This document shows, piece by piece, positions 4,139-59,759 of a stretch of DNA of 64,000 nucleotides. Below the pieces are notes generated by a model. That model searched no databases, was not told the origin of the DNA, and saw nothing but the letters and a program-made list of their open reading frames with translations. This DNA is from Parcubacteria group bacterium Greene0714_7. Its GTDB lineage: Bacteria; Patescibacteriota; Minisyncoccia; Phycocordibacterales; Phycocordibacteraceae. Positions within the stretch are counted from its first letter, which is position 1. Every line of letters begins with the position of its first letter. The DNA lies in assembly GCA_007378985.1 (NCBI GenBank), contig VMHB01000001.1, positions 64,252 to 128,251 on the forward strand, written 5' to 3'. The translations under genes and the position numbers were made by a program.

Positions 4139-4333
4139 GTGACCGACATAATCAAGGAAACACTTCAGGGGTCAATTGATCGAGCAAATAAAGCTCATGG
4201 TGATTTTAATGATCCCGAGGGTCGAGATAAACCTACTATTCGGCGATTCAATCGACTTCGCGATTTAATAAACTTTTTTGGATATAGTCTGGAAGATTTT
4301 CCAGACTTAAATATGAAACCTCCTTGGAAATAA
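4139..4333 (+). CDS. Hypothetical small protein (64 aa)
   Basis: ORF only; no recognisable motif. Confidence 0.2.
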   Translation: MTDIIKETLQGSIDRANKAHGDFNDPEGRDKPTIRRFNRLRDLINFFGYSLEDFPDLNMKPPWK

Positions 4334-10088: not shown

Positions 10089-10440
10089 GTTCATGACCCC
10101 AAGCACGAGAATAATTTCTCGTGCGTCCGGGAATCGAATGGCACAGGCATATTTTTGTTTGTGCCTCACAAGGCAAAAATGCCGAGCCGGGGTCGCGAGA
10201 AATTTCTGTCAGGAAATTTACTTGTGACCGGTTTCCCGGTGGGGTCACAAAGTCAAAAACATGCCGACTGCTCGGCATTTTTTACTTTGTGACAGCCGGA
10301 GCCATGTCGCTTGCGACGGGCGAGGCGGGGTCGAGCGCACTTAGTATTTTGTGAGCCTTCGGAGCAAAATACTTAGTGACGGGTGACCACAAAGAAAAAA
10401 CACGCTAGTGAGCCGTGATCGATTCCCGGTGGGGTTCGAA
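10089..10440. repeat. Composite non-coding region downstream of tRNA-Glu: inverted copies of the tRNA 3' end (10091-10102, 10125-10136), an inverted about 100-bp repeat unit (10140-10240), direct copies of the tRNA 3' end (10210-10228, 10412-10430) and a conserved hairpin element (10285-10395)
   Basis: The string cgattcccggtggggt of tRNA-Glu recurs twice downstream. 10190-10232 is the reverse complement of 2761-2800. 10293-10395 matches 32345-32450 almost base for base. Confidence 0.6.
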
Positions 10441-11911: not shown

Positions 11912-11955
11912 CCTGTATAGTATAATTTAACGACCGTTAGATTATACTATACAGG
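11912..11955. promoter_or_regulatory. Palindrome B, copy 1: cctgtatagtataat-ttaacgaccgttag-attatactatacagg
   Basis: 15-bp perfect inverted arms that each contain a TATAAT-like hexamer; related copies at 46059-46100 and 51107-51148. Confidence 0.5.
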
Positions 11956-12009: not shown

Positions 12010-12045
12010 TTTGTATTTTAAGATACCCCTAATTCGCACGAATTA
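12010..12045. promoter_or_regulatory. Palindrome A, copy 1: aagatacccctaattcgcacgaattaggggtatctt
   Basis: 17-bp perfect arms; the outer half-sites ATACCCC/GGGGTAT match the CsoR-operator half-sites at 5297-5314. A second copy lies at 45981-46014. Confidence 0.5.
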
Positions 12046-12105
12046 GGGGTATCTTAATTAAAAATTATTTAGGTATCGTGATGTGGCATGAATCAGTGGT
12101 ATATG

Positions 12106-12167
12106 AAAAGGACATTGAAGTGATTTGATATACAAAATCACTTCAATGTCCTTTTTTCTTTTCCCTA
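12106..12167. terminator. Bidirectional intrinsic terminator between the convergent alkA-like gene and ahcY
   Basis: About 20-bp perfect stem (ggacattgaagtgattt...aaatcacttcaatgtcc) flanked by an A-tract and a T-tract. Confidence 0.7.
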
Positions 12168-12190
12168 AACCCTAACCACTAATCACTAGC

Positions 12191-13510
12191 TCAGGTTCCT
12201 TCTTCCCACGAACTCAAATAGTGTTTTTGTTCTTCGGTGAGGGTATCAACGTAGATGCCCATAGAAGCGAGTTTTAAGTTAGCGACACGGTTTTCTATTT
12301 CTGGATCAATTTCATACACGCCAGCTTTTAGTGTTGCTTTATTGGCAACAACCCACGATGAAGCAAGTGCTTGTGTTGCAAAGCTCATATCCATAACGGA
12401 TGCGGGATGACCTTCAGCGGCTGCGAGGTTTACTAAGCGTCCTTCGCCAATAACATAGAGTCTTTTACCGCCTACGAGGTATTCATCAACATTTTTGCGC
12501 ACATCTTTTGTCACTTTTTCAGCCATTGCTTCAAGTGCTTTCAGATTTATTTCCACATCAAAGTGACCTGAATTGCAGAGAATAGCTCCGTCTTTCATGG
12601 CAGGGAAGTGTGTTTTGTCGATGACATTGATGTCCCCTGTGAGTGTGCAGAAGATGTCGCCAATTTTAGCGGCCTCTTTCATGGGCATAACCTCAAACCC
12701 GTCCATAACGGCTTCAAGAGCCTTAATAGAATCCACTTCAGTAACTATAGTGCGTGCTCCCATACCACGAGCGCGCATGGCAAATCCTCGTCCGCACCAG
12801 CCGTATCCTCCAACCACAACTACTTTGCCGGCGATGAGGGCGTCAGTTGCACGAATGATACCGTCCAAGGTTGATTGGCCAGTACCGTAGCGATTGTCAA
12901 AAAGATTTTTTGTTTTTGCATCGTTCACGGCAACAACAGGTATTTTTAGTGCACCATCTTTTGCCATTGCACGAAGGCGGATGACTCCTGTGGTTGTCTC
13001 CTCCATGCTTCCCATAATTTGTGTTGCTTTCTCAGGGTGATCGCGGTGAATGGTAGTTATGAGGTCTGCCCCGTCGTCCATGGTGATAACAGGGTTGTGT
13101 GCAATAGCGGCTTCAATGTGTGAGAAGAATTTTTCTTTATCTTCAGCGCGAATGGCATACACGGGGATGCCGTAGTCGACAACTAAGCTCGCTGCGACAT
13201 CGTCTTGTGTTGAAAGGGGATTGGAGGCTACTAGGAGCACATTAGCGCCACCAGCTTTTAGTGTACGCATGAGGTTTGCGGTTTCAGCGGTGACATGGAG
13301 GCATGCTGAAAAATTCATATCTTTAAACGGGAGTTCTTTTTCAAATTGTGCACGCACATCACGAAGTACCGGCATGTCGCGTTCTGCCCATTCGATTCTT
13401 TTCTTTCCAAGAGGTGCGAGAGCTATGTCTTTAATATCGTATTCCATCCCGTTGTGAAGTTTGGCGTCATTTCCTGCAGGGTTTTTATTAGAGTTTGTTG
13501 AGATATCCAT
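12191..13510 (-). CDS. ahcY: Adenosylhomocysteinase (S-adenosyl-L-homocysteine hydrolase)
   Basis: 439 aa; NAD-binding GYGWCGRG; SAHH-typical N-terminal region. Confidence 0.9.
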
Positions 13511-14515: not shown

Positions 14516-14651
14516 ATAAAGAAAGGGGTTAGCTTCTAGGTGCTAGGTTCTAGCTTTCTGAAAATTGAAAAGCTAGCACCTAGTTCCTAGTACCTAAAAC
14601 CTATCCCAGAGTTTACCTCGTGAGCTGAAAAAATAAAAGAAATCGAAGAAC
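14516..14651. repeat. Heptamer-periodic imperfect hairpin element between trxB and the pfkB-kinase start
   Basis: Reverse complement reads ...ctaggaactaggtgctagcttttcaattttcagaaagctagaacctagcacctagaagctaacccc...ATG; homologous to 21236-21336. Confidence 0.55.
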
Positions 14652-15575: not shown

Positions 15576-15683
15576 AAAATAGCTTTCAGGTGTCAGCTTA
15601 CAGCTTTCAGCTTAAAAAACAAAATCCACACCTCTCTTTAAAATAAAAAAACCAAGATGGATTTAAGATTCGGTTCAAAAAAC

Positions 15684-15753
15684 AACCCCCAACCCCTTTA
15701 GTTAACTAAAGGGGTTGGGGGGTAAAAAAGAAAGCCGGAAGTTCCCGGCTTTC
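15684..15753. terminator. Two consecutive strong hairpins downstream of ftsZ (aacccccaacccctttag...ctaaaggggttgggggg and gaaagccggaagttcccggctttc)
   Basis: Inverted repeats read directly; they sit between the ftsZ stop and the trxB upstream region. Confidence 0.6.
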
Positions 15754-15775
15754 TCAATACTCTTAACTCTATTCA

Positions 15776-17392: not shown

Positions 17393-18565
17393 TCAAGGCA
17401 AGAATTGTCGCAAAAATCCCATGACGGAATTACTGACTTCTTTGATAGCAATGCCAGCAGTAGGACGAGCAAAATTGTCGCCAGTCAGCCCCCATATAGT
17501 GAGTCCATAGGCTACCGCCCATGACGAATCTTTTATTTTTGCATCACTCGCAATATTAAGTGAAGCAATTTTTGAGTGGAGCTTCAATGCTGATTCTGCA
17601 ATTTCTTTTATAGGGCCAATACCGGAACCACCTCCTGAAAGAACAATGCCTGCAGGGAGTAGTTGATCCTTACCAAGTTTTTTTAAATGACCATCGATGA
17701 GTTCAAAGATGTCAGTGAGTCGCGCAGTCAAAATGTCATCAAATTTTTTCTTTGAGTAGGTAGCGTTGGTTATTGCACCGAGTTTTAATTGCTCCGCTTC
17801 ATCAAGTGAGATTCTGAGCCCCAATGCAATATCTTTTGTGATGTCCATCGAGCCAATGCGAAATACTTTCAGTGATACCGGCATACCGTTATCAAATACA
17901 ACTATTGAAACTGTTTCAGCGCCTATGTTTGCAAGAACGCACCCGGCTTTTTTTTCAGCATTTGAAAGGGTAATGATGGATCCTGCGAGAGGTGACGCCA
18001 TAGTATCAGCCACGGCAATATCAGCTCGCTCAACGGACTCAATGAGGTCGTTTACATGTTGCTCTAAACAGGTCACGAACAGTGTTTCGACAGAAAGTTT
18101 TGTTCCTTTCATTCCATGTGGGCGACCTAACACTTCTGAACCATCTATTGAAAACACCAAGGGCACCGTGTGGAGAATTTTCCTGTTTACCAGTCTTCCT
18201 GATACATTTTCGCGGGATGCGTCAATTGCTTTTTCGATATCAAGATCAGTAACTTCAGCGTCAGCTCGAGAAATAATTGCATCTCCTTTGCCTCGTACCT
18301 CATCAAGTCCAATGCCACCGATAGAGAGAAAGGCGGTTTTTATTTTTACACCTGCAAATTCTGAAGCCTGCGTCGCGGCAATGCGAATTGATCGAGCTAC
18401 ATCGTCTGCGTTTACAATGTAGCCATGTCGAAGCCCTTTTGATTCTGCATATCCCGTGCCTATGATTTTTGGGAATAGAGAGGTGCGGTCTGCCGATTCG
18501 CGCGCAATGACAACGCGCACCTGATAGGTGCCAATATCGATGCCAACTGCGATACGGGGTGCCAT
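17393..18565 (-). CDS. ftsA: Cell division protein FtsA
   Basis: Actin-like ATPase fold (AVGIDIGTYQVRVVIA, DIGGG-like phosphate motifs); upstream of ftsZ. Start placed at MAPRIAVGIDIG because the longer ORF would translate a motif that is non-coding at two other loci. Confidence 0.85.
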   Translation of the reverse strand: MAPRIAVGIDIGTYQVRVVIARESADRTSLFPKIIGTGYAESKGLRHGYIVNADDVARSIRIAATQASEFAGVKIKTAFLSIGGIGLDEVRGKGDAIISRADAEVTDLDIEKAIDASRENVSGRLVNRKILHTVPLVFSIDGSEVLGRPHGMKGTKLSVETLFVTCLEQHVNDLIESVERADIAVADTMASPLAGSIITLSNAEKKAGCVLANIGAETVSIVVFDNGMPVSLKVFRIGSMDITKDIALGLRISLDEAEQLKLGAITNATYSKKKFDDILTARLTDIFELIDGHLKKLGKDQLLPAGIVLSGGGSGIGPIKEIAESALKLHSKIASLNIASDAKIKDSSWAVAYGLTIWGLTGDNFARPTAGIAIKEVSNSVMGFLRQFLP

Positions 18566-18576
18566 TGTAATAGGGG

Positions 18577-18610
18577 ATAGGCGACGCTTCGTCGGATCCG
18601 AAGGGATCAT
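18577..18610. promoter_or_regulatory. Conserved two-hairpin motif, copy 1 (ataggcgacgcttcgtcggatccgaagggatcat) in the ftsA leader
   Basis: Near-identical copies at 50161-50195 and 59728-59759. Hairpins are cgacg-ctt-cgtcg and gatcc-gaag-ggatc. Confidence 0.55.
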
Positions 18611-18658
18611 GTGGTTTTTACCACAAAACGTTGTCGTCAAACTTATCCTATCACGCAC

Positions 18659-20550: not shown

Positions 20551-20589
20551 GTTTGTGAGGGATTAGTGGTTTGGATTAATAAGAAAACA

Positions 20590-21183: not shown

Positions 21184-21235
21184 GGTTGTTTTCGTTGTGC
21201 AATGCTATTTATGCAAAAATATTTTTTTCGTATAC

Positions 21236-21336
21236 ACTTGTTGAAGGTTCTAGGTGCTAGGGACTAGGTGTTAGCTTTTAATTTTCAGAAAGCTAGAAGC
21301 TAGAAGCTAGAAGCTAGAAGCTAGCACCTAATCTCA
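21236..21336. repeat. Heptamer-periodic hairpin element ending in (GCTAGAA)x4 immediately before the pth start codon
   Basis: ggttctaggtgctagggactaggtgttagc-ttttaattttcagaa-agctagaagctagaagctagaagctagaagctagcacctaatctca|ATG. The left arm reverse-complements to the right-arm repeats. Confidence 0.6.
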
Positions 21337-21924
21337 ATGTACATCATCGTTGGACTTGGTAACCCTGGAGAAAAATACGAGCATACACGCCACAATGCGG
21401 GACGTATGGCACTTGATTGGTTTAAAAAGAAGTATGATTTTTCTGATTGGGAGTTTAATAAAAAATTAAACGCACACACTGCAGAAGGGAAGGTGGGAAA
21501 AGCGAAGGCACTCTTGGTTATTCCGGATACTTTCATGAATAATTCCGGTAAAGCTGTCTTGGGGTTGGTGAAATCAAAAAAAGCCGCATCAGAATTATTG
21601 GTTGTATACGATGATCTCGATATCCCGTTCGGTACCTTTAAGATTTCATACGGAAGAAGTTCTGGTGGACACAACGGTCTTGAGTCAATTATCCGTGCAG
21701 TGAAAACGAAAGATTTTCCACGCCTGCGTTTTGGTGTTTCGCCAGCAACACCATCTGGAAAATTAAAGAAGCCAATGGGAGAAAAAAAAGTTCTCGATTT
21801 TCTTTTAGGGGATTTTTCGAAAAAAGAAAAAGAAGTGATGCCAAAGATTTTGAAGAAGGTAGGGGAGGCGATTGAGATTTCGGTTACGGAAGGTTATCAA
21901 ATAGCGATGAATAAATCTAACTAA
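21337..21924 (+). CDS. pth: Peptidyl-tRNA hydrolase
   Basis: MYIIVGLGNPGEKYEHTRHNAGRMALD N-terminal signature. Confidence 0.9.
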   Translation: MYIIVGLGNPGEKYEHTRHNAGRMALDWFKKKYDFSDWEFNKKLNAHTAEGKVGKAKALLVIPDTFMNNSGKAVLGLVKSKKAASELLVVYDDLDIPFGTFKISYGRSSGGHNGLESIIRAVKTKDFPRLRFGVSPATPSGKLKKPMGEKKVLDFLLGDFSKKEKEVMPKILKKVGEAIEISVTEGYQIAMNKSN

Positions 21925-21930
21925 CCTGCA

Positions 21931-22158
21931 ATGCCTAGACCAGGGTACGAACGTCATCATACAGGGAGAGCATTGGATGAAATTCAGCAAAGTTATTTAG
22001 TTGAGCAGAGAGTAATGAGGGATTTTGCTCTTCTTCTAGATCTCTATAAGCGTGGTGAGTATCCTGGTGAAAGTTTATCTGACATTGAGAAAGAGGTCGC
22101 CACTCGTATGGCAGAAGCAGAAGCATTTCGGATATCTCGAAGAACACAGTTACACTAA
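21931..22158 (+). CDS. Hypothetical small protein (75 aa)
   Basis: ORF immediately after pth and before a strong terminator; no motif. Confidence 0.35.
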   Translation: MPRPGYERHHTGRALDEIQQSYLVEQRVMRDFALLLDLYKRGEYPGESLSDIEKEVATRMAEAEAFRISRRTQLH

Positions 22159-22186
22159 AAAACACCCCGGGCGGGGTGTTTTTTAG
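22157..22186. terminator. Bidirectional intrinsic terminator (aaaaaacaccccgggcggggtgtttttt)
   Basis: 7-bp GC stem flanked by an A-tract and a T-tract, between the + small ORF and the convergent rpsA. Confidence 0.75.
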
Positions 22187-22196
22187 TGTAAGGAAT

Positions 22197-23294: not shown

Positions 23295-23350
23295 TTAATC
23301 AGTAATCGATTGGGCGCTTCTAGGTTCCAGCTTCTAGGGGCTAGGTTCTA
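23295..23350. repeat. Heptamer-repeat leader (reverse-complement cctagaa cctagcc cctagaa gctggaa cctagaa) directly upstream of the rpsA ATG
   Basis: Read directly; same family as 21236-21336 and 14516-14651. Confidence 0.55.
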
Positions 23351-23491
23351 GGAAGGATTAACACCAACCAAAGTGATATAAAAAAGCCCTAGGGCTTTGT
23401 CGGGAATTTATACCATATATATCATCCGAGAACAAACTGATTGACACTGCTTTCTTAAAGTTCTAGGTTGTGTGAACTAATATATAATTTT

Positions 23492-24980: not shown

Positions 24981-27449
24981 ATGGCTCGAAAGAAAGTGCA
25001 AACAGCACCTGAAGATAGTACTCCGGAGGCCGACATGGGCCTTCGTGTCATTTCGCATTCAATTGTTACTGAAATGCGCGAGTCGTACCTCGACTACGCA
25101 ATGTCCGTTATTACTGCGCGCGCTTTGCCTGATGTGCGCGACGGTTTGAAGCCAGTACATCGTCGCATTCTCTACACCATGCATCGCATGGGTCTCTCTG
25201 CTACCTCAAAACCTCGAAAATCGGCTGCGGTAGTTGGAGATGTCTTGGGTAAATACCATCCACACGGCGACACCGCTGTGTATGAAGCAATGGTTAAGAT
25301 GGCGCAAAATTTCACCATGCGATATCCCTTGATTATTGGTCAAGGAAACTTCGGCTCAATCGATGGCGACTCAGCTGCTGCTATGCGTTACACCGAAGCA
25401 AAGATGTCAAAGCTCTCTGCTGATCTTCTGTCTGACCTTGATAAAGACACTGTTGAATGGCGTCCAAACTACGACGGTACGCAAAAGGAGCCCAATGTTC
25501 TTCCTGCTGGAGTTCCAAATATTCTTTTGAATGGAACTCTTGGTATTGCTGTTGGTATGGCAACTAATGTCCCTCCACATAACTTAGGTGAAGTAGTAGA
25601 TGCCACAGTGCATCTTATTGATAATCCGGATGCAACTGTCGATGAGCTTTTACAATTTGTTCAAGGACCTGATTTTCCAATTGGAGGTATCGCATTTAAT
25701 TCAAAAGATATTGCACATGCATATGCAACAGGGCGCGGGCCTGTGGTGGTCCGAGGTAATGCAGAAATCACTGAGGATAAAAAGGGTAATAACATCATCC
25801 TTATTACCTCTATTCCGTACCGTGTAAACAAAGCTGACCTAATCATAAATATTGCAGATTTAGTGCGTGACAAAAAACTTGAAGGTGTACGAGACCTCCG
25901 TGACGAATCAACGACTGATATTCGTGTTGTGGTGGAATTGAAAAATAATGCCCAACCACAGCAGGTATTGAACTACCTGTATAAGCACACACAGCTTGAA
26001 GATGCGTTCCATTACAACATGGTGCTTTTGGTAGATGGTGTGCCTGAAACACTCTCGCTTTCCGCAATTCTTTCATATTTCATCGAACACAGAAAAGTTG
26101 TTGTAAAGAGGCGCACTGAGTTTGATTTGAAACGTGCACAAGAGAGAGAGCATATTTTGCTTGGACTTAAAAAAGCACTCGATCACATAGATGAAATCAT
26201 CAAATTAATTAAGGCGGCGAAGGATGTGCAGGGCGCTCACACTGATCTCCAAAAGAAATTCAAATTCTCTGAGCGCCAAGCTACAGCAATTCTTGAAATG
26301 CGTCTACAGAAACTTGCAGGCTTGGAGCGCAAAAAAATCGAAGATGAGTTGAAAGAAATACAAGCATTCATTAAGGAGTTAGAGGAAATACTTTCTTCAA
26401 CGAAGAAAATAATGAAGGTGGTGAAGACTGAGCTCTTGGCGCTTCGCGAGAAATACGCTGATGAGAGACGTACCAAAATTGTAAAGGGTGGCATTAAGAA
26501 TATGTCAGATGAAGACCTTATTCCTGACGAAGCTGCGATGCTCACACTTACTTCTACTGGGTATGTGAAGCGCACCAGCCCAAGCGAATATAAGAAGCAA
26601 AATCGTGGTGGTGTGGGAGTTGTTGATTTAAATACAAAGGAAGAAGATTTCGTGACACGATTCTTGGAAGGCTCCACACATGACTCGGTCTTGTTTTTCT
26701 CTGATCGTGGAAAGGTGTATCGAACACGCATGTATGAAGTACCTGAAGGAAGGCGAGCCACAAAAGGTAAATCAATTATGAATGTACTTCCGCTTTCTGC
26801 GGAGGAGCGCATTACTTCAATAGTTGCATTGACTAAAAAATCAGCAACATCTTCCTTCATGCTCATTACCGAGAAAGGTGTTGCAAAGAAAGTGAAAGCA
26901 GATCAGTTTGAAGATGTACGCCGTTCAGGCATCATCGCGATGTCACTACAAGCAGGAGATAGTTTGATTGCTGTTCTTCCTGTTGAGAAAGGTGAGAGTG
27001 TTATTTTAGTAACCGCAGGAGGTCAGGCAATTCGCTTTAAGGAATCAGACATTCGTGAGATGGGACGCACCGCTGGCGGAGTGCGCGGTATGAAGTTTGG
27101 AAGTAAGGACAAGATAATTGCAGCAGACGTTATTAAGAATGAAAAAGAGAGTGAGGTTTTGGTTCTTGCTGATATGGGATACGGTAAGCGAACACCTGCA
27201 AAGGAATACAAAATACAAAAGCGTGGTGGCTCTGGTATTAAAACGGGCAAGGTAACTCCAAAAACAGGTTCAATTATTGCAGCGCGCGTCGTTACTCCAG
27301 AAATGTCAGAAATAATCGTTGCATCAAAAAATGGACAAGTGATTCGAACTGAACTCTCACAAGTGCCAACACTTTCGCGCGCCACACAAGGTGTTCGTAT
27401 TATGAAGCTTCGTGAAGGTGATAAAATTGCAGCGTTCACCGCTTTTTAG
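24981..27449 (+). CDS. gyrA: DNA gyrase subunit A
   Basis: [13 protein letters not shown], active-site Tyr region [14 protein letters not shown]-like region, C-terminal beta-pinwheel repeats; 822 aa. Confidence 0.95.
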
Positions 27450-27520
27450 TTGCCAGCTGCCAGGTTTCAGGTGCCAGCTTTCAGCCTCAAACTTCGAGCT
27501 GTCAGGTTCCAGCTTAAATT
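27450..27520. repeat. Heptamer-periodic repeat (gccagct gccaggt ttcaggt gccagct ttcagcc...) downstream of gyrA
   Basis: Period-7 pattern read directly; a related stretch at 27590-27630 precedes the methyltransferase start. Confidence 0.5.
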
Positions 27521-27679
27521 TTTTCTGTATGATATATCATACAGAATTTGTGGATGACTCAAGGGGAAAAGAGGGATTTCCCCTCATCCCTAAAAGCTAA
27601 CAGCCAAAAGCTAGAAGCTAGGCTGTACCTTGTTCTTGCTCCGTGGAAAATTCAACCACCGACACACTTGCGGGGTACA

Positions 27680-28207
27680 ATGCAAAGAATGTTCCTGAAC
27701 CCTACAGATATTCTTTCCCATCTCCCGATAACCGCGCATGCAAAAGTGGGAGATTTTGGCGTAGGTGCTGGGCACTATTCATTTGCTTTGGCTGAAAAAC
27801 TTGGCAGAGAAGGTACTATTTACGCTTTTGATGCGTTTGGTCCAGCACTCGATGCTATTCGTCGGAAAGGGGAACACTATCCAGCTGAGTTTCATACATT
27901 GCAGTCGGATTTGAATGAGCCTATACCCATCGGAGATAACCTTCTCCATATTGCTGTGGTGGCAAATATACTTCACCAAATTCGTGAGCGTGAGCGTTTT
28001 GTGATGGAGGTTGCGCGCGTGGTACGCCCTGGGGGTACTGCACTTGTTGTTGATTGGATCTCCTCATTTAAAAATATGGGACCTTCATCTGAGGCCGTGC
28101 TAGCCCCAGGGGAGGCGGTCCGTCTTTTCAGGCAAGCAGGTTTTGAAACTGGGGACATGCTTCCTGCGGGAACGCATCATTTCGCATTTCTTGCGACGTT
28201 AAAGTAA
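27680..28207 (+). CDS. Class I SAM-dependent methyltransferase
   Basis: Motif I VGDFGVGAGHYSF and a post-I acidic residue. Start placed at MQRMFLNP because the longer ORF from 27548 would translate the leader repeat. Confidence 0.65.
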   Translation: MQRMFLNPTDILSHLPITAHAKVGDFGVGAGHYSFALAEKLGREGTIYAFDAFGPALDAIRRKGEHYPAEFHTLQSDLNEPIPIGDNLLHIAVVANILHQIRERERFVMEVARVVRPGGTALVVDWISSFKNMGPSSEAVLAPGEAVRLFRQAGFETGDMLPAGTHHFAFLATLK

Positions 28208-29673: not shown

Positions 29674-29744
29674 GAATTAGGGTATATAGTGTTTAGGCGA
29701 TGCCTCATTGGATCCGTAGGGATCATAAGAAAACAAAAAACAAT

Positions 29745-30110
29745 ATGAAAAAAATATTTGCACGAGCTCTCCCGTTTTCTCTGTCGTTAGCATTGCCTTT
29801 TGTTGTACTTGCATCTGGTTGCGATAGTGCAAGCGCTGGAGGTCTTTGTAATCCTCTTGGATATAATTCTCTGTGGGAATTTTTACAGCGAATGCTCCAG
29901 TTGATTACTCAAATTGGTTTTCCTGTGATTGTGCTTTTCATTGTATTCATAGGGTTTAAATTCATCACTGCCGAAGGCAAACCTGAAGAGATTGCAAAAG
30001 TTAGAAGTCTCTTTTTCTGGGCGATCGTTGGCTCTTTAGTGGTGCTTGGAGCTCAAGCGCTTGCACTTGCAATACAGGCAACTGTTAACGATATTCAGGC
30101 TGGCTTGTAA
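29745..30110 (+). CDS. T4SS-pilin-like (TrbC/VirB2-type) small membrane protein, paralog 1
   Basis: Signal peptide, Cys-containing stretch, then two hydrophobic helices separated by a short charged loop (TAEGKPEEIAKVRS). Confidence 0.5.
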   Translation: MKKIFARALPFSLSLALPFVVLASGCDSASAGGLCNPLGYNSLWEFLQRMLQLITQIGFPVIVLFIVFIGFKFITAEGKPEEIAKVRSLFFWAIVGSLVVLGAQALALAIQATVNDIQAGL

Positions 30111-30118
30111 AAATATTT

Positions 30119-30553
30119 ATGACACTGACATCGATTATTAACACCATGACGGATGTTGTGACGTTAGCGGTTCCGTGGGTTCTCGTATTTTTGATTTTTT
30201 ATTGGAATGCTTACAAAATTATTTTTGACGCCGATAACGCAGAAAAAAGAAAACAGGCACTCCCTCGTCTTATATGGAGTATTGTTGCGCTCGCTATAAT
30301 CTTTTCTTTAGGAGGAATCGTCAATATAATTAGCAACACACTTCTTGGCTCAAGTAGTTCAACATTTGCACCTTCTAGTTCTTCGTCTCAGTCGCCTGAA
30401 CTTTTAGGTGGATCAAGGGCTGGAACATTAGGTACGCCAGCACCAGGTACTTCTCCAACCACTCCACGCTCACCAATTAACCCAAATATAGACCCAAGAG
30501 GAGAAATACGAACCCTACCTTCTTCTGGAGCTAATCCAGTGCGGGATATTTAA
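30119..30553 (+). CDS. T4SS-pilin-like small membrane protein, paralog 2, with a Ser/Pro/Thr-rich C-terminal tail
   Basis: Two TM helices around a DADNAEKRKQ loop, same spacing as the neighbouring paralogs; low-complexity S/P/T tail. Confidence 0.45.
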   Translation: MTLTSIINTMTDVVTLAVPWVLVFLIFYWNAYKIIFDADNAEKRKQALPRLIWSIVALAIIFSLGGIVNIISNTLLGSSSSTFAPSSSSSQSPELLGGSRAGTLGTPAPGTSPTTPRSPINPNIDPRGEIRTLPSSGANPVRDI

Positions 30554-30571
30554 AAAATTATATATTTTCAT

Positions 30572-30925
30572 ATGAAAAAAATAATCGGAATGACTTTTAT
30601 TGGCGCAACGGCACTCGTACCAGTTTCAACATTTGCAGCTGCAAGTACCATTCAGGATGTGCTCCGTAACCTTAACCTTCCACTTCAGCTCGCAACAACG
30701 CTTGTAGTAATGCTCGCACTTCTCCTCTTCTTTTGGGGTTTAGCTATGTATGTTTTTGGCTCATCTAATGATGAAAAGCGGAAAAAGGGTATACCTATGA
30801 TGATTTGGGGCGTTGTTGCTCTATTCGTGATGCTCTCTATCTTCGGTATCATTAATATGCTTCAGGCTACCTTTGGGGTTGGTTCTGGAACCCTCCAAAT
30901 CCCAACCATTAGTAGAGGGCAATAG
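30572..30925 (+). CDS. T4SS-pilin-like small membrane protein, paralog 3
   Basis: Signal peptide (…FAAAS); TM1-FGSSNDEKRKKGI-TM2 core nearly identical to paralog 4. Confidence 0.55.
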   Translation: MKKIIGMTFIGATALVPVSTFAAASTIQDVLRNLNLPLQLATTLVVMLALLLFFWGLAMYVFGSSNDEKRKKGIPMMIWGVVALFVMLSIFGIINMLQATFGVGSGTLQIPTISRGQ

Positions 30926-31046
30926 GCTATTGTGGTTCTCCACATCCCGTTTATACATTTTCCTTTGAAACAGGGGGAATGATACAATTAAGGCTGACTT
31001 ATTATTCAGGAGATTTATCTCGTTATATTTAATTGTTCGTAATTAT

Positions 31047-31421
31047 ATGAAAGGATTTTTAAGAACTGGTATTGCCACTGTCGTCGCTCTTGCTCCATTT
31101 GCTGCATTTGCTGCAGGCGGTGTTGATAACGCACTTACAAAAATTGGTGCTTTGATTACACAAGCAACACCAATTGTCGTTGCTCTTGCTCTTCTTGCCT
31201 TCTTCTGGGGTTTGGTTACCTACATCTTCGGTTCTTCAAATGATGAAAAACGAAAGAAAGGTATCCACATAATGGTATGGGGCATTATCGCTCTCTTCGT
31301 CATGCTCTCTGTCTTCGGTATCATCAATGCTCTTCAGAGCACATTAGGTGTTGAAAATACAACGACAATTCAGATTCCACAGGTGACTCCAGGTACTAAT
31401 GGAGGAGGAACTGCTCGTTAG
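31047..31421 (+). CDS. T4SS-pilin-like small membrane protein, paralog 4
   Basis: Signal peptide (…FAAFAAGG); the same FGSSNDEKRKKGIHIMVWG core. Confidence 0.55.
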   Translation: MKGFLRTGIATVVALAPFAAFAAGGVDNALTKIGALITQATPIVVALALLAFFWGLVTYIFGSSNDEKRKKGIHIMVWGIIALFVMLSVFGIINALQSTLGVENTTTIQIPQVTPGTNGGGTAR

Positions 31422-32274: not shown

Positions 32275-32327
32275 GCGCCCGTAGCTCAGTTGGTAGAGCG
32301 ACTCCCTCTTAAGGAGACGGTCGCAGG
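32275..32327 (+). pseudogene. tRNA-Lys-like 5' fragment (acceptor, D-arm, anticodon arm CTT, 5' T-stem) with no matching 3' half
   Basis: GCGCCCG-TA-GCTCAGTTGGTAGAGC-G-ACTCC-CTCTTAA-GGAGA-CGGTC-GCAGG, followed at once by the conserved hairpin element. No TTCGAAT-CCTGC-CGGGCGC found downstream. Confidence 0.5.
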
Positions 32328-32334
32328 ATTTTCT

Positions 32335-32580
32335 TGTTTTGTGCGTGCCGGAGCCATGTCGCTTTGCGACGGCGAGGCGGGGTCGAGAGCACTTAGTATT
32401 TTCTGAGTCTTACGAGAATAATACTTAGTGAATCGTGACCACAAAAAATAAAAAAGCACTACGCAAGTAGTGTTTTTTGCTTGTGTGCGTGCCGGAACGA
32501 TGTCCTGAGTCTCGAAGGACCGTGAGGCGGGGCCAGCGACCGAGACGAGCGACGGCGAGTCGAGAGTCGTGGCCACAAAT
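32335..32580. ncRNA. Two tandem copies (one complete, one variant) of a conserved about 100-nt hairpin element (gccggagccatgtcgcttgcgacgg-cgaggcggggtcgag-gcacttagtatttt...aaaatacttagtga-gtgaccacaaa)
   Basis: 32345-32450 matches 10293-10395 with substitutions confined to the loop of the long cacttagtatttt/aaaatacttagtg stem. 32480-32570 shares the ends and has a different central hairpin. Calling it an RNA is inference. Confidence 0.4.
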
Positions 32581-38064: not shown

Positions 38065-38127
38065 TGCACATTATTCTCTTGCTGTTTACCCCTAAACCCT
38101 ATACCCTAAACACTAACCCCTTCCCAT
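38065..38127. repeat. Heptamer-repeat leader ccctaaa ccctata ccctaaa cactaac ccc abutting the ATG at 38128
   Basis: Read directly; same family as the leaders of serS, relA and the hisS-like gene. Confidence 0.5.
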
Positions 38128-38967: not shown

Positions 38968-39079
38968 CATTAGAAGCCTTTAGGTTTCAGCTGTCAGCCT
39001 TCCGAGAGGAGTTTGTATTTGTTCTGTCTATAAGCTAAAACCTGAAACCTAAAACCTGCCTTTCTGGTATAATAGACGT
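38968..39079. promoter_or_regulatory. Heptamer-repeat region plus an extended -10 (tggtataat, 39066-39074) ending 5 nt before the clpB ATG; a leaderless clpB transcript is possible
   Basis: gctaaaa cctgaaa cctaaaa cctgcc...tggtataatagacgtATG read directly. Confidence 0.4.
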
Positions 39080-43225: not shown

Positions 43226-43466
43226 CAGTTTTGAAACGCAGTGAAAAACTGCGGTACCAAGAAAAGCACTTATGTGCTTTTCGACAAGGATTCGAAGACC
43301 CTGAATATATCGCACGGAGCCTGTCTTCAGGCGAGTACGATATGAAGGGTGTACAGCTCCTGTAAAGAGACTTTTCAGAAACTGCATTCGGACGAAACGA
43401 AAACTATGTTTTCGTTTCGCTTCTCTCTGGTTTCTGTAAGGAGAGAATCCTTGTGGGCCCGCAAAA
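43226..43466. repeat. tRNA-Trp trailer: two hairpins, an inverted T-arm copy (caaggattcgaagaccc, about 43286-43302) and a 19-nt direct repeat of the tRNA 3' end (aatccttgtgggcccgca, 43447-43464)
   Basis: Read directly. The direct repeat at about 220 bp resembles a tRNA-targeting att remnant, but there is no cargo gene between the copies. Confidence 0.55.
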
Positions 43467-44197: not shown

Positions 44198-44259
44198 TTT
44201 TAATAATAGGGCGGTGCTTTTTTACGCAACGAAAAATTACTGTCCAGATAAAATCACCT

Positions 44260-45878: not shown

Positions 45879-45980
45879 CGATTACAATCCTAACATTTCC
45901 ATACACTGACAGTCTTGGCTTTGTAATTCGTAAAGAGCGCACAATTACCCCGCGTTCCTACTTTCTCCTATTCTATTTTC

Positions 45981-46014
45981 ATATACCCCTTATTCGTGCG
46001 AATAAGGGGTATAT
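45981..46014. promoter_or_regulatory. Palindrome A, copy 2 (atataccccttattcgtgcgaataaggggtatat)
   Basis: Same outer half-sites as copy 1. It sits in the divergent intergenic region between the acyltransferase gene and the 46171 ORF. Confidence 0.5.
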
Positions 46015-46058
46015 GAAAATACAGAGGTCGGATCTTTGTATTTTTACTTCACTTCCAT

Positions 46059-46100
46059 CGATATAGTATAATCTAACGATCGTTAAATTAAACTATATCG
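46059..46100. promoter_or_regulatory. Palindrome B, copy 2 (diverged: cgatatagtataatctaacgatcgttaaattaaactatatcg)
   Basis: Preceded by the small palindrome aaaatacagaggtcggatctttgtatttt (46021-46045). Confidence 0.45.
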
Positions 46101-46170
46101 TGATTTTAAGTCTGAAAGATGAAAAGAGGTTCTGTAGTATTTTTTGAAATGGGTGAGTTACACTGATTCT

Positions 46171-50146: not shown

Positions 50147-50160
50147 TGAGTGTTTTGGTG

Positions 50161-50195
50161 GATAGGCGACGCTTCGTCGGATCCGAAGGGATCAT
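50161..50195. promoter_or_regulatory. Conserved two-hairpin motif, copy 2, 14 nt upstream of the 5-FCL start
   Basis: gataggcgacgcttcgtcggatccgaagggatcat, identical to copy 1 at 18577-18610. Confidence 0.55.
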
Positions 50196-51106: not shown

Positions 51107-51148
51107 CTGTATAGTATAAATTAACGATCGTTAAATTATACTATACAG
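51107..51148. promoter_or_regulatory. Palindrome B, copy 3 (ctgtatagtataaattaacgatcgttaaattatactatacag), about 118 nt upstream of parB
   Basis: 42-bp near-perfect palindrome read directly. Confidence 0.5.
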
Positions 51149-51265
51149 GTAAAGAGTAGTAGAAAGTAGGTTGGACAGTTGAATTTTTTTGAATTTTCTC
51201 AATTTTTGAGAAACAGGAGGATTTTTTATCTCACGCTTCTTTTGTGTTCGTGTTACAATTTTCCC

Positions 51266-52228: not shown

Positions 52229-52406
52229 TTTCTGCCTGCATAACAGAATAAATAAAATACCCCCCCAAGTGAAATCTTGAGGGGTATTTTATTTTTTAGG
52301 TGGGGGTGGTGATTTTATATATCAAATCACTTAAATCATGGAGAGCGGTAGCTCTCCATGTATATAAAAGCTCAACTTGAAATCCTTTGGAGTGGTCGGC
52401 GTAGAG

Positions 52407-53939: not shown

Positions 53940-53990
53940 TCAGATTAGTGTATAGGGTTTAGTGATTAGTGTATAGGGTTTCAATACAAA
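53940..53990. repeat. Heptamer-repeat leader (reverse-complement ccctata cactaat cactaaa ccctata cactaat ctga|ATG) abutting the relA start
   Basis: Read directly. Confidence 0.5.
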
Positions 53991-57559: not shown

Positions 57560-57617
57560 TGTTTTGGATTTGTTCTCCTCTCTAAACGCTATCCCCTAAA
57601 CCCTAACCCTTATTCCC
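57560..57617. repeat. Heptamer-repeat leader ctctaaa cgctatc ccctaaa ccctaac ccttatt ccc|ATG abutting serS
   Basis: Read directly. Confidence 0.5.
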
Positions 57618-58908: not shown

Positions 58909-59715
58909 ATGTCAAACCCGCAACAGCCAAAACTGAGTCTTCGAGAGAGGCGTCGCCGATTAGTCTGGGTGAAGGTTGCTGCTGGCAGTGCGGTTGTGGC
59001 TCTGTCGTTTATTGCAGTATGGTTTCTTGCGCGTATTCCCACAACCACAATCGCTTCAATTGAAGTGAAGGGAACCTCAATAGTTTCAGCTGATGAAGTC
59101 AAAAAACTTGTTGAAGAAAAATTGGATGGTTCATATGCCTATTGGATTCCACATAGAAACTCTTTGCTGTTTCCAAAAAGAAATATAGAGAATGCTCTAG
59201 CTCTTGCGTTCCCTCCACTTGCAAAAGTTTCCATTTCTCGAAATGGTTGGAGTGCGCTTACCGTCACTACAGAAGAGAGGGTAGCTACCGCCCTGTGGTG
59301 CGATGGCGTCACTGAATCTGAGACCTGTTACAGCATTGATAAGAATGGTTTTATTTTTGCCACCGCAACAGACGCCACACCTATGGTTCGTTTTTACGGC
59401 GCACTCTCGGGCGTGCCCATTGGTAGCACTTATTTGAATGGAGGATTTGCCTCTCTCAATACCTTAGTTGCTGGTATTGCTTCATCTATACATCGCACCC
59501 CGAAAACTGTTACTGTTGATGGTGCTTCGAATGATGTTGAGCTTGCGTTCCAAGACGGTGAGGTATTGAAGTTTGTTCGCACAGTAAACCAGCAAGCAAC
59601 TCTTGAAAACATTGCCTCGGTTTTTGCATCTCAGAGTTTTAAAAAGAACAAGGATTTTGAATATGCCGATTTCCGTTTCGGTGACAAGGTGTACATAAAG
59701 TTTAAAGGGGAATAG
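58909..59715 (+). CDS. ftsQ: Cell division protein FtsQ/DivIB (POTRA domain)
   Basis: Basic N-terminus, single TM, POTRA region IEVKGTSIVSADEVKKLVEEKL. Confidence 0.65.
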   Translation: MSNPQQPKLSLRERRRRLVWVKVAAGSAVVALSFIAVWFLARIPTTTIASIEVKGTSIVSADEVKKLVEEKLDGSYAYWIPHRNSLLFPKRNIENALALAFPPLAKVSISRNGWSALTVTTEERVATALWCDGVTESETCYSIDKNGFIFATATDATPMVRFYGALSGVPIGSTYLNGGFASLNTLVAGIASSIHRTPKTVTVDGASNDVELAFQDGEVLKFVRTVNQQATLENIASVFASQSFKKNKDFEYADFRFGDKVYIKFKGE

Positions 59716-59727
59716 GGGTTAGGGTTT

Positions 59728-59759
59728 AGGCGATGCTTCATCGGATCCGAAGGGATCAT
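59728..59759. promoter_or_regulatory. Conserved two-hairpin motif, copy 3 (taggcgatgcttcatcggatccgaagggatcat), about 45 nt upstream of dus
   Basis: Same as copies 1 and 2 except that the first hairpin is gatg-ctt-catc instead of gacg-ctt-cgtc (a compensatory C/G to T/A change). Confidence 0.55.

Follow-up and report, generated by a model that had tools for sequence, protein, structure and literature searches.

Seven-nucleotide repeat cassettes at gene boundaries in a Parcubacteria group bacterium and its relatives

A 64,000-nt stretch of DNA from Parcubacteria group bacterium Greene0714_7 (contig VMHB01000001.1, assembly GCA_007378985.1, positions 64,252–128,251 of the forward strand; hereafter the window, to which all positions refer) carries tandem arrays of 7-nt units at the edges of its genes, among them a two-armed module at 21236–21336, upstream of pth, that had been singled out in a preceding sequence-only reading of the same DNA. 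The arrays are specific to a period of seven, share a common core, are built as palindromic modules and lie at gene boundaries, and they change by slippage, by duplication and by the replacement of whole cassettes. We tentatively regard them as lineage-specific non-coding cassettes, similar to the doublets (REPINs) that repetitive extragenic palindromic (REP) elements form or to short tandemly repeated repetitive (STRR) sequences, which have been filtered by selection at gene boundaries and probably form boundary hairpins in mRNA, rather than as a special ribosome-binding signal.

Results

Periodicity was measured by a lag-7 self-match scan, with block-shuffled sequence as the control. The scan returned 14 segments in the window, compared with 0.3 ± 0.5 in the block shuffles and with 0–4 at other lags (8 at lag 14). 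All 14 lie in spacers, the lone apparent case within an open reading frame (ORF), at 27589, being due to a mis-called TTG start. The 7-nt units reported earlier at 21236–21336 are present as described, and Tandem Repeats Finder gives a 7-nt unit in 5.0 perfect copies at 21290–21324. Throughout the 1.38 Mb of related loci that served as the comparison set (codes L003–L177 denote fetched loci), period 7 occurs in 138 segments against 12–37 for periods of 5, 8, 10, 11 and 13; it is the commonest non-coding repeat period there and exceeds the other non-triplet periods. The array density is 3–8 per 10 kb in the close relatives of the window and zero in most other Paceibacteria, with a patchy occurrence in others (L044, L056, L076, L086 and L049). 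The nearest Pth proteins, 85–99% identical, come from metagenome-assembled genomes (MAGs) of Patescibacteria/Candidatus Paceibacterota, and the locus L007 (Gw_Eff_bin_311) has a DNA identity of ~98.7% to the window across shared genes. The conserved synteny around pth allows a locus-by-locus comparison centered on this gene. A metagenome scan with the conserved pth promoter block gave 50 matches, two of which are real pth loci (L110 and L123).

When oriented by their C-rich strand, 79 of 86 arrays from 14 loci share CT in one phase, within a composite core (A/C)(C/G)-C(90%)-T(88%)-A(62%)/G(19%)-N-(A/C), in which positions 3 and 4 are C and T. The remaining positions set the families, such as ACCTAGA, AGCTAGA, CCCTAAA, CACTAAA, AGCTGAA, CACTGTT and TTCTACN; there are more than 40 different consensus units, TAACTGA not among them, with the CT core alone in common. 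A full module consists of a G/T-rich array, an A/T-rich center of 10–25 nt (or a 29-nt double mini-hairpin element) and a complementary A/C-rich array, and by virtue of the inverted complementary arms either strand can fold into an imperfect hairpin of 25–35 bp. The formation of a G-quadruplex from TTAGGG-type arms was set aside as relevant to one family only. A use of the units as primase initiation sites (CTA/CTG) was likewise considered and set aside. The notion that CTAG heptads are a special repeat wherever they occur was also rejected, since viral contigs hold 98 such arrays and control patterns are comparably frequent there (CTAG at period 8, 45; CTAG at period 6, at least 119; GATC at period 7, 75). 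Perfect arrays of (CTAGAAG), a rotation of the unit of the pth right arm, were seen in low-GC contigs of giant-virus MAGs, eight copies at 4216–4275 of L153 and six at 589–634 of L177, and the control scans assign them to the ordinary tandem-repeat background.

At the pth site (Table 1), the arms 21251–21280 and 21301–21330 are 77% complementary, and 21245–21331 is predicted to fold into an imperfect hairpin of ~30 bp that terminates at the pth ATG, with a minimum free energy (MFE) of −38.8 kcal/mol for the leader RNA and z = −3.5; none of 200 dinucleotide shuffles folds as well. The start call of pth, which encodes a 195-aa peptidyl-tRNA hydrolase, is right, as the Pfam alignment begins at residue 3. 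The center TTTTAATTTTCAGAAA is common to the pfkB module and to the pth modules of L012, L139 and L140, with 0–1 mismatches. The TATACA hexamer in the conserved block directly 5′ of the module is a putative −10 box of the pth promoter, and it is from this conserved box alone that we infer the hairpin to lie inside the transcript. In L011, the TATACA box stands 10 nt from the pth ATG with no module between. Nine pth alleles from different genomes all fold, the stem starting 2–6 nt past the conserved TATACACTT box and its foot lying 0–13 nt upstream of the ATG. The trxB/pfkB junction, where a module of the same unit family ends ~12 nt from the pfkB ATG, is predicted to fold at least as markedly (MFE −40.1 kcal/mol, z = −4.1), so that the long imperfect hairpins proposed earlier for both sites are borne out.

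The mean folding z over 37 array-bearing spacers is −3.2. The average pairing energy is −33.9 kcal/mol for cognate arms and −20.7 ± 8 kcal/mol for arms of different families, from which it follows that the arms co-vary by family. The entire gap between stop codon and ATG is taken up by some modules, such as those of L012 (8024–8107) and L003 (7864–7947). A terminator scan did not pick the pth and pfkB modules as intrinsic terminators, their stems being long and interrupted and the pth module lacking a T-run; the same scan found classical terminators elsewhere, for example at 15686–15721, 22150–22191 and 12107–12154. Single-armed arrays also occur: the one at 38084–38125 has no complementary arm and folds like shuffles (z = −0.1), and that in the serS leader is likewise unstructured (z = −0.6).

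The arrays keep to gene boundaries. Of 115 arrays in 24 loci, 100 fall outside the called ORFs, even though coding sequence accounts for ~82% of the DNA. Within 8 nt of a gene boundary there are 41 of 70 arrays, compared with 15.4 expected (p = 4e-11). This count is inflated at starts, since each gene was taken to begin at the first start codon of its longest ORF and the arrays themselves carry stops; abutment at stop codons is far less prone to this bias. The starts of pth, trxB and serS are confirmed by Pfam alignments beginning at residues 1–3. The stop codons of gyrA and of the 58909 gene fall inside arrays, and that of ahcY directly precedes one. The association with gene boundaries noted in the sequence-only reading thus stands, as do the repeats placed after the stops of gyrA (27448), ahcY (12158–12190) and the 38128 gene (38979–38998). 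Among the genes for which an array before the start had been claimed, pth, trxB, pfkB, relA, serS, the 38128 gene, rpsA and clpB indeed have one, by Pfam and position, while the leader of the hisS-like gene is only weakly periodic; full hairpins of the CTAG family are found in the neighborhood of the hisS-like gene in L012 and L009, at ~8.0 kb of those loci. The longest-ORF starts are wrong at 17393–18658 and 27548–28207: the true start of ftsA is at 18565 (MAPRIAVGIDIG), giving 390 aa as in the relatives, and that of the methyltransferase gene is near 27.69 kb, 3′ of a TACAAT box. In eight close loci, arrays occupy 37 of 101 spacers of 35–220 nt, leaving ~63% without one; by type, they are found in 27 of 72 co-directional, 7 of 16 divergent and 3 of 13 convergent spacers.

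The two boundaries differ in the polarity of the arrays that adjoin them. On the sense strand, the arrays next to starts in the 24 loci comprise 28 G-poor and 8 G-rich ones, and those next to stops 23 G-rich and 5 G-poor ones. These pooled counts overstate the significance somewhat, since modules at orthologous sites of related genomes do not count as independent observations; the counts from the window alone agree with them in direction (start-adjacent arrays A+C-rich in 8/8, stop-adjacent arrays G+T-rich in 3/3). The polarity rests on array-level counts because automatic picking of the main hairpin was too noisy and mixed in terminators. The module center is found in both orientations relative to the downstream gene. 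As the module is quasi-palindromic, its polarity looks alike on both strands; in complete modules, the polarity accordingly belongs to the module itself and does not reflect the manner of its insertion.

Among 34 start-adjacent arrays, the last in-phase core lies 6–12 nt before the ATG in 23 (mode 8–9 nt), and the gap from array to ATG is 1–13 nt in 26. The 31 array leaders contain no ATG, where composition-matched shuffles have ~0.39 each. Stops number 3.35 per 42 nt in these leaders (1.82 in shuffles), their G content is 12%, and 42% of them are closed by stops in all three frames (8% of shuffles). That three-frame closure is itself a selected feature is unsupported, as the enrichment is inseparable from the CTA/CTG core and the CTAC and CTTTCCA families lack stops.

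Arrays do not mark genes or genomes that lack a Shine-Dalgarno (SD) sequence. The sequence-only reading had described the repeats as standing in place of the SD sequence; the named genes have none upstream, but nearly all genes are equally SD-free, an SD-like motif at −20 to −5 being found for 2 of 52 window genes. Over 80 Pth-anchored Paceibacteria loci, the SD-like fraction equals that of the internal control and shows no relation to array density (Spearman 0.02), so that the idea of arrays as a mark of SD-less genomes was rejected, SD motifs being at background everywhere. The whole group looks SD-independent, and the absence of SD is hence not special to repeat-led genes. No 16S gene was found in the window or among 472 fetched loci. 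The 1,207 array-free starts of the related loci show a 2.5–3-fold enrichment of TATA, ATAA and TAAT at −15 to −4 and a G content down to 7–14% over the last 12 nt. They carry −10-like boxes 5–12 nt upstream of the ATG, which makes leaderless or short-leader initiation look like the default. For clpB, the TGGTATAAT box (39065–39073) is followed after 6 nt by the ATG, and for gyrA the TGCTATAAT box is followed by it after 11 nt. As the right arm of the module at 38975–39060 is upstream of the clpB box, 19 nt from the clpB ATG, this array is probably outside the clpB mRNA. Boxes of the TGnTATAAT/TAnnnT type 5–12 nt before an ATG were observed at 39065–39073 (clpB), ~24960 (gyrA), 44245–44252 and other places. 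A consensus sigma-70 scan of 12–28.5 kb gave 18 sites, compared with 25 in shuffles, and placed no promoter relative to the modules.

The module at one and the same site turns over rapidly between relatives (Table 1). The pth genes of L007 and the window are 99.5% identical and their modules 49%, and those of L140 and the window are 71.6% identical and their modules 86.6%, the difference between the latter being mostly one 7-nt unit; GCTAGAA is present in five copies at pth in the window and in four in L140. Copy number is likewise unequal for (GCGTTTA)n between L110 and L123, the ftsA leader of the window is short of its relatives by ~22–23 nt (three heptads), and L003 has a perfect array (CTTTTAG)7. 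The L007 pfkB module matches that of L009, not that of the window. The pth and pfkB modules of the window align over ~85 nt including the center, though they occupy unrelated spacers on opposite strands. They are thus two paralogous copies within 64 kb, a cassette having been copied to a second, non-homologous spacer within the genome. Module identity is decoupled from the identity of the flanking genes, and whole cassettes are swapped.

Table 1 Heptad arrays, modules and associated elements in the window, and module families at the pth site of related loci
Feature	Position or loci	Strand	Remarks
pth module, left arm, G/T-rich GGTTCTAGGTGCTAGGGACTAGGTGTTAGC	21245–21274	+	four 7-nt units, TTCTAGG/GTGCTAGG type
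pth module, center, A/T-rich hairpin loop TTTTAATTTTCAGAAA	21275–21290	+	
pth module, right arm, A/C-rich (GCTAGAA)x5 GCTAGCA CCTAATC TCA	21291–21336	+	abuts pth ATG at 21337
Conserved block TGCAAAAATATTTTTTTCGTATACACTTG directly 5′ of pth module	21212–21240	+	contains putative −10 box TATACA, 21231–21236
pth-site module, CTAG family	window, L012, L139, L140		
pth-site module, CAGCT family	L009		
pth-site module, GTAGAAA/CTTTCCA family	L010		
pth-site module, TTAGCG/CTAAAC family	L003, L008, L123		
pth-site module, CAGCG family	L005		
pth-site module, ACAG/CTGT family	L007		
pth site without heptad module (empty)	L011, L137, L138, L006		
Complete module between trxB stop and pfkB ATG (14515)	14524–14610	−	paralogous copy of pth module, same unit family and center
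trxB leader, single A-rich array AAGCTGA AAGCTGT AAGCTGA CACCTGA AAGCTAT	15579–15616	−	4–5 nt from ATG (15575)
rpsA (S1) leader array, CCTAGAA type	23318–23352	−	23 nt from ATG (23294)
gyrA-stop arrays, CAG core (GCCAGCT/TTCAGGT)	27448–27515	+	begin within gyrA stop codon; hairpin, z = −3.4
AAGCTAR array 5′ of methyltransferase gene	27589–27623	+	true gene start near 27.69 kb
38128-gene leader, single C-rich array CCCTAAA CCCTATA CCCTAAA CACTAAC CCC	38084–38125	+	ends 2 nt from ATG 38128
Module 3′ of 38128-gene stop	38975–39060	+	arms 38979–38998/39034–39053, 85% complementary
relA leader array, (CCCTATA CACTAAT CACTAAA)-type, 14-nt super-period	53943–53981	−	3 nt from ATG (53939)
serS leader array CTCTAAA CGCTATC CCCTAAA CCCTAAC CC	57582–57616	+	1 nt from ATG (57618)
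G-rich array GGGGAATAGGGGTTAGGGTTTAGG	59703–59757	+	provides 58909-gene stop, TAG 59713–59715
G-rich array (ahcY sense) right after ahcY stop (TGA 12191–12193)	12158–12190	−	convergent spacer, terminator hairpin next
29-nt element (18580–18608) and heptad remnant TATCCCC TATTACA	18566–18608	−	directly before true ftsA ATG (18565)
Short G/T-rich stretch and 29-nt element (50165–50193)	50151–50193	+	between ahpC-like stop and next ATG (50209)
29-nt element (29696–29724) with heptad-like flank	29682–29724	+	5′ of first pilin gene of type IV secretion system (T4SS)
hisS-like gene leader, C/A-rich, weakly periodic	20551–20589	−	

Replacement is not confined to complete modules. The rpsA array occupies a variable slot between conserved leader blocks, with a TGGTATAAA box and a small hairpin resembling a terminator on its 5′ side, and whole spacers are mosaics of small elements even among strains that are 95–98% identical in the flanking genes. 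The spacer 5′ of trxB (15576–15775), compared with those of L007, L012, L008 and L009, is a mosaic of unrelated small hairpin elements. The intergenic DNA of the clade appears to be generally cassette-like.

A recurrent partner of the arrays is the 29-nt element GATCCCTTCGGATCCGACGAAGCGTCGCC, whose window copies at 18580–18608, 29696–29724, 50165–50193 and 59729–59757 are all on the minus strand, the last continuing directly from the array at 59703. Fifteen copies were found in relatives, and it is always followed by TA and C-rich heptads; the element sits inside a heptad arm once, in L139. It is composed of two adjacent mini-hairpins, with compensatory changes at three base pairs across the 15 copies; double changes occupy eight cells, and the covariation score obtained was not attained in any of 500 shuffles. 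The element has no Rfam match and is absent from the viral contigs, and to judge from its copies it resembles in behavior a tiny insert of REP type moving together with the arrays. At the gathering score, Rfam recognized only tRNAs in the window; neither the hairpins nor the 29-nt element matched a family, and a scan of 14–24 kb at a permissive E-value yielded nothing but sub-threshold chance matches.

Several repeats of other kinds were observed in the window. A 43-nt near-perfect palindrome, CTGTATAGTATAATTTAACG/CGTTAGATTATACTATACAGG, is present in three copies (11913–11955, 46059–46101 and 51107–51149), one of them ~30 nt 5′ of parB (51179), and could be an operator or a partition-type site. 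Adjoining these are palindromes ATACCCCTAATTCG/CGAATTAGGGGTAT at 12018–12057, 45974–46021 and 52247–52297, candidates for terminators or for pieces of a larger composite repeat. Tracts copied from the 3′ ends of tRNAs (Glu, Trp, Val side) lie beside tRNA genes at 10233–10259, 10401–10435, 43438–43463 and 2846–2869/2973–2996, and a 128-nt repeat is shared by two tRNA-linked regions (10278–10405 and 32330–32457), with a 51-nt partial tRNA match at 32275–32325. Together these look like remnants, of att type, left by integrated elements, or else like a repeat family linked to tRNAs. Finally, 29700–31421 contains at least four small T4SS-pilin (TrbC/VirB2-like) paralogues in a synteny conserved in relatives, with an internal 190-nt repeat (30692–30881 and 31164–31353, 73% identity).

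Discussion

In the account that we tentatively prefer, the cassettes would arise and spread by replication slippage together with recombination or transposition, as selfish or near-neutral DNA, and selection at the boundaries would filter the survivors, tolerating next to starts an arm that is G-poor, ATG-free and stop-rich. The start-adjacent arm would then obey the same G-poor compositional rule as the array-free starts of an SD-free, largely leaderless group. Once transcribed, a cassette would insert a long stem-loop into the stretch that leads from the 5′ end, or from the preceding stop codon, to the following ATG. Its likely effect would be on the mRNA ends, as a protection or as a substrate for a double-strand RNase, in the manner of the Haemophilus hmw leader, and a recruitment of the ribosome seems unlikely. 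Hairpins at transcript or cistron boundaries, which the sequence-only reading had offered as one alternative, are the most plausible effect at the RNA level.

Several observations weigh against this account. The C-T core is conserved across the families, which suits a trans-acting factor or a constraint better than pure drift, and so does the clustering of the last in-phase core 8–9 nt before the ATG. The presence of a module at the pth site in 11 of 15 relatives in spite of the sequence turnover and the high identity of the L140 module, set against that of its pth gene, could both reflect purifying selection on a functional element. No mobilizing enzyme was identified among the window proteins or in the Pfam listings of related loci, and no target-site duplications were seen. 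Pfam annotation of 50 window proteins, small ORFs included, gave no RNase III, Rho, Csp, Hfq, CsrA, HutP, ribbon-helix-helix (RHH) or Y1 transposase match, and the listings of related loci likewise contain no Y1 transposase of the REP-associated (RAYT) kind. As for the hairpins, the sense strand folds a little less well than the antisense strand in 19 of 27 co-directional modules (p = 0.04), so that its hairpin stability is not obviously under selection. This asymmetry fits the G-depletion of the leader arm. G·U pairs as a sign of selection on the sense RNA are, for the same 19 of 27 modules, unsupported.

By analogy with the hmw leader, whose (ATCTTTC)n hairpin raises expression when it is cleaved by RNase III (PMC12721329), the hairpins could themselves be the selected feature, an RNase III-type cut in the stem separating the cistrons, so that either the right arm, which is poor in G, or a nearly leaderless 5′ end would serve as a translatable leader, or else the uncut stem protecting the mRNA ends. 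The stems are long and stable (25–35 bp), that of pth is placed consistently between the TATACACTT box and the ATG in the nine alleles, the modules of L012 and L003 span the entire gap from stop to ATG, the pth site is occupied in most relatives despite turnover, and in a leaderless or short-leader group internal cistrons need another route of initiation. We nevertheless consider such an adaptive element rather unlikely, because many arrays have no partner and fold like shuffles (38084–38125 and serS), orthologous genes in relatives manage without a module, the sense strand shows no excess of stability, transcription of clpB probably starts downstream of its array, and the window has no rnc gene. 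The proposal of the sequence-only reading that the heptads replace the SD sequence as a lineage-specific initiation signal, with S1 or some other RNA-binding protein reading them and bringing in the ribosome, has in its favor that arrays end 1–13 nt before many ATGs with the last CTR core roughly at the SD position, that the leaders are G-poor, ATG-free and, when single-armed, mostly unstructured, and that the same was proposed for the TAACTGA repeats of Beggiatoaceae (PMC4679880). It does not hold up, however, and we judge it decidedly improbable: SD is missing from genes with or without arrays and from array-free relatives alike, about two thirds of the spacers are array-free, arrays also follow stops, occur in convergent spacers and precede a promoter, and the units differ widely among orthologous leaders, the pth orthologues of L011, L137, L138 and L006 being module-free. 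Moreover, two-armed modules put the ATG at the foot of a stem of −35 to −40 kcal/mol, which should hinder 30S binding.

The arrays might alternatively be read, on DNA or RNA, by an oligomeric protein that binds one SCTAR core per 7 nt and regulates many genes. The omega repressor, an RHH protein, binds heptad operators on DNA, and HutP binds RNA sites of the form (NNNNUAG)x3, in which UAG triplets recur in two sets of three at spacings of 4 nt. The phase-locked C-T-(A/G) core in otherwise different families, the direct and inverted arrays around an A/T-rich center, the recurrence of UAG every 7 nt in both pth arms, which are ~20 nt apart, and the overlap of the clpB array with the −35/UP region of its promoter would suit such a binder. 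A HutP-type antiterminator site was nonetheless rejected, as the UAG+4 pattern of pth is replaced by CAG, CUG and CUU in other families and the window encodes no HutP-like protein. More generally, a per-unit binder needs no complementarity of the arms at the variable positions, yet the arms are complementary; the arrays are found in convergent spacers and after stops too, the CAG/CTG and CTT families are without UAG, no RHH, HutP, Csp, CsrA or Hfq candidate is among the window proteins, and a replacement of whole cassettes between near-identical strains would be odd for a conserved regulon. Regulation by a protein of this kind is therefore improbable in our view. Less probable still are contingency (phase-variable) loci, in which changes in copy number would tune or switch the downstream genes: relatives do differ in steps of 7 nt, perfect expansions such as (GCTAGAA)5 in the window and (CTTTTAG)7 in L003 look recent, and hmw provides a precedent (PMC12721329), but the genes beside the arrays have housekeeping functions (pth, serS, trxB, rpsA, relA, ftsA and gyrA) and are not of the surface or host-interaction kind typical of such loci, and arrays after stops cannot work in that way.

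We may further speculate, as a proposal of low probability, that the hairpin cassettes provide a start route for genes away from the transcript 5′ end in an SD-free, mainly leaderless mode of translation. The stem would fold out the spacer and bring the ATG beside the 5′ end or the previous stop, as in ribosome shunting or re-initiation, or else a double-strand RNase would cut the stem base and create a leaderless 5′-AUG; the SCTAR core would be the recognition feature of that machinery. If this start route were true, it would be a new mode of defining cistron boundaries in bacteria of the candidate phyla radiation (CPR). Returning to the boundary-filtered cassettes that we tentatively prefer, the meaning of the arrays depends on whether they affect the mRNA. 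If they shape mRNA ends or initiation, they offer an entry into the expression of internal cistrons in SD-free, leaderless-type bacteria. If they are only selfish DNA, micro-repeat elements are active even in streamlined episymbiont genomes, Patescibacteria having genomes of ~0.75 Mb and very little regulatory machinery, and intergenic regions would be unreliable for strain comparison and for the calling of gene starts. The allele series at the pth site, with the empty site, at least five families, and four versus five repeats, is a set of natural variants.

It is worth comparing the arrays with the repeats described in other bacteria. Heptamers abutting starts were noted a decade ago, without explanation, in Beggiatoaceae, cyanobacteria and Bacteroidetes, and in the literature searched we found no paper describing start-abutting heptad cassettes in Patescibacteria. 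The TAACTGA heptamers of marine Beggiatoaceae, some Cyanobacteria and Bacteroidetes, for which S1, Csp and CsrA were proposed as readers (MacGregor 2015, PMC4679880), resemble the present arrays in being tandem intergenic 7-nt units that mostly end a few nucleotides before starts in a ‘forward’ orientation, with stops in all frames, no SD, and housekeeping genes without a functional pattern downstream; their unit has CTGA, as does the AGCTGAA family here. However, that system has one dominant unit and no predicted secondary structure, whereas many families sharing only the CT core are found here, with inverted arms (G-rich first, C-rich second), long hairpins, stop abutment and cassette swaps, and in Patescibacteria. 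In a survey by Mrazek et al. 2007, as reported in PMC4679880, heptanucleotides are the most abundant class of long repeats in most repeat-rich genomes, and polymerase slippage was proposed as the source of long repeats; as far as the survey is represented there, it leaves unexplained the CT core, the inverted pairing and the codon placement seen here.

Cyanobacterial STRRs are tandem heptamer arrays, and the ACTGTTx family here resembles the reverse complement of STRR3 (CAACAGT). Like the present arrays, the cyanobacterial heptamers, including the TTTTGAA/TTCAAAA repeats of Nostoc (bioRxiv 10.1101/2022.06.06.494920), are intergenic, near promoters and starts, of several unit families, and suspected of a regulatory role, whereas they belong to another lineage, have other units and can form much longer arrays. 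No description of a palindromic build with the G-rich arm first and the C-rich arm second, spanning from stop to start, was found for them in the literature searched. REPs and REPINs (Bertels & Rainey 2011, PMC3116915), including the GTAG/CGTC REPs (Di Nocera et al. 2013, PMC3733652), share with the modules the extragenic inverted doublets of ~90–100 nt, the hairpins in single-stranded DNA or mRNA, several families per genome, dispersed copies of strain-variable presence, and the location between unidirectional and convergent genes, and the 29-nt element contains the CGTC motif, as do CGTC-tagged REPs. Nevertheless, REP arms are unique palindromes of 20–40 bp and not tandem 7-nt arrays, REPs lie mostly downstream of genes while the arrays here are also at starts, and REPINs depend on a RAYT transposase gene.

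In H. influenzae, the hmw1A/hmw2A 5′ untranslated regions contain (ATCTTTC)n (Rapun-Araiz et al. 2025, PMC12721329), likewise a heptamer upstream of the start that varies in copy number by 7-nt steps and, as predicted for the present modules, pairs with a complementary G-rich arm into a long hairpin. There, one or two adhesin loci with at least ten repeats are concerned, and RNase III cleavage and effects on expression were demonstrated by experiment; in contrast, the arrays of the present group occur at dozens of housekeeping loci, with 3–6 repeats per arm and the G-rich arm on the 5′ side, so that the polarity is reversed. Altogether, the repeats described here are more structured than the earlier cases of start-abutting heptamers, with one core over many families, inverted arms reaching from stop to start, and cassettes that turn over independently of the genes they separate.

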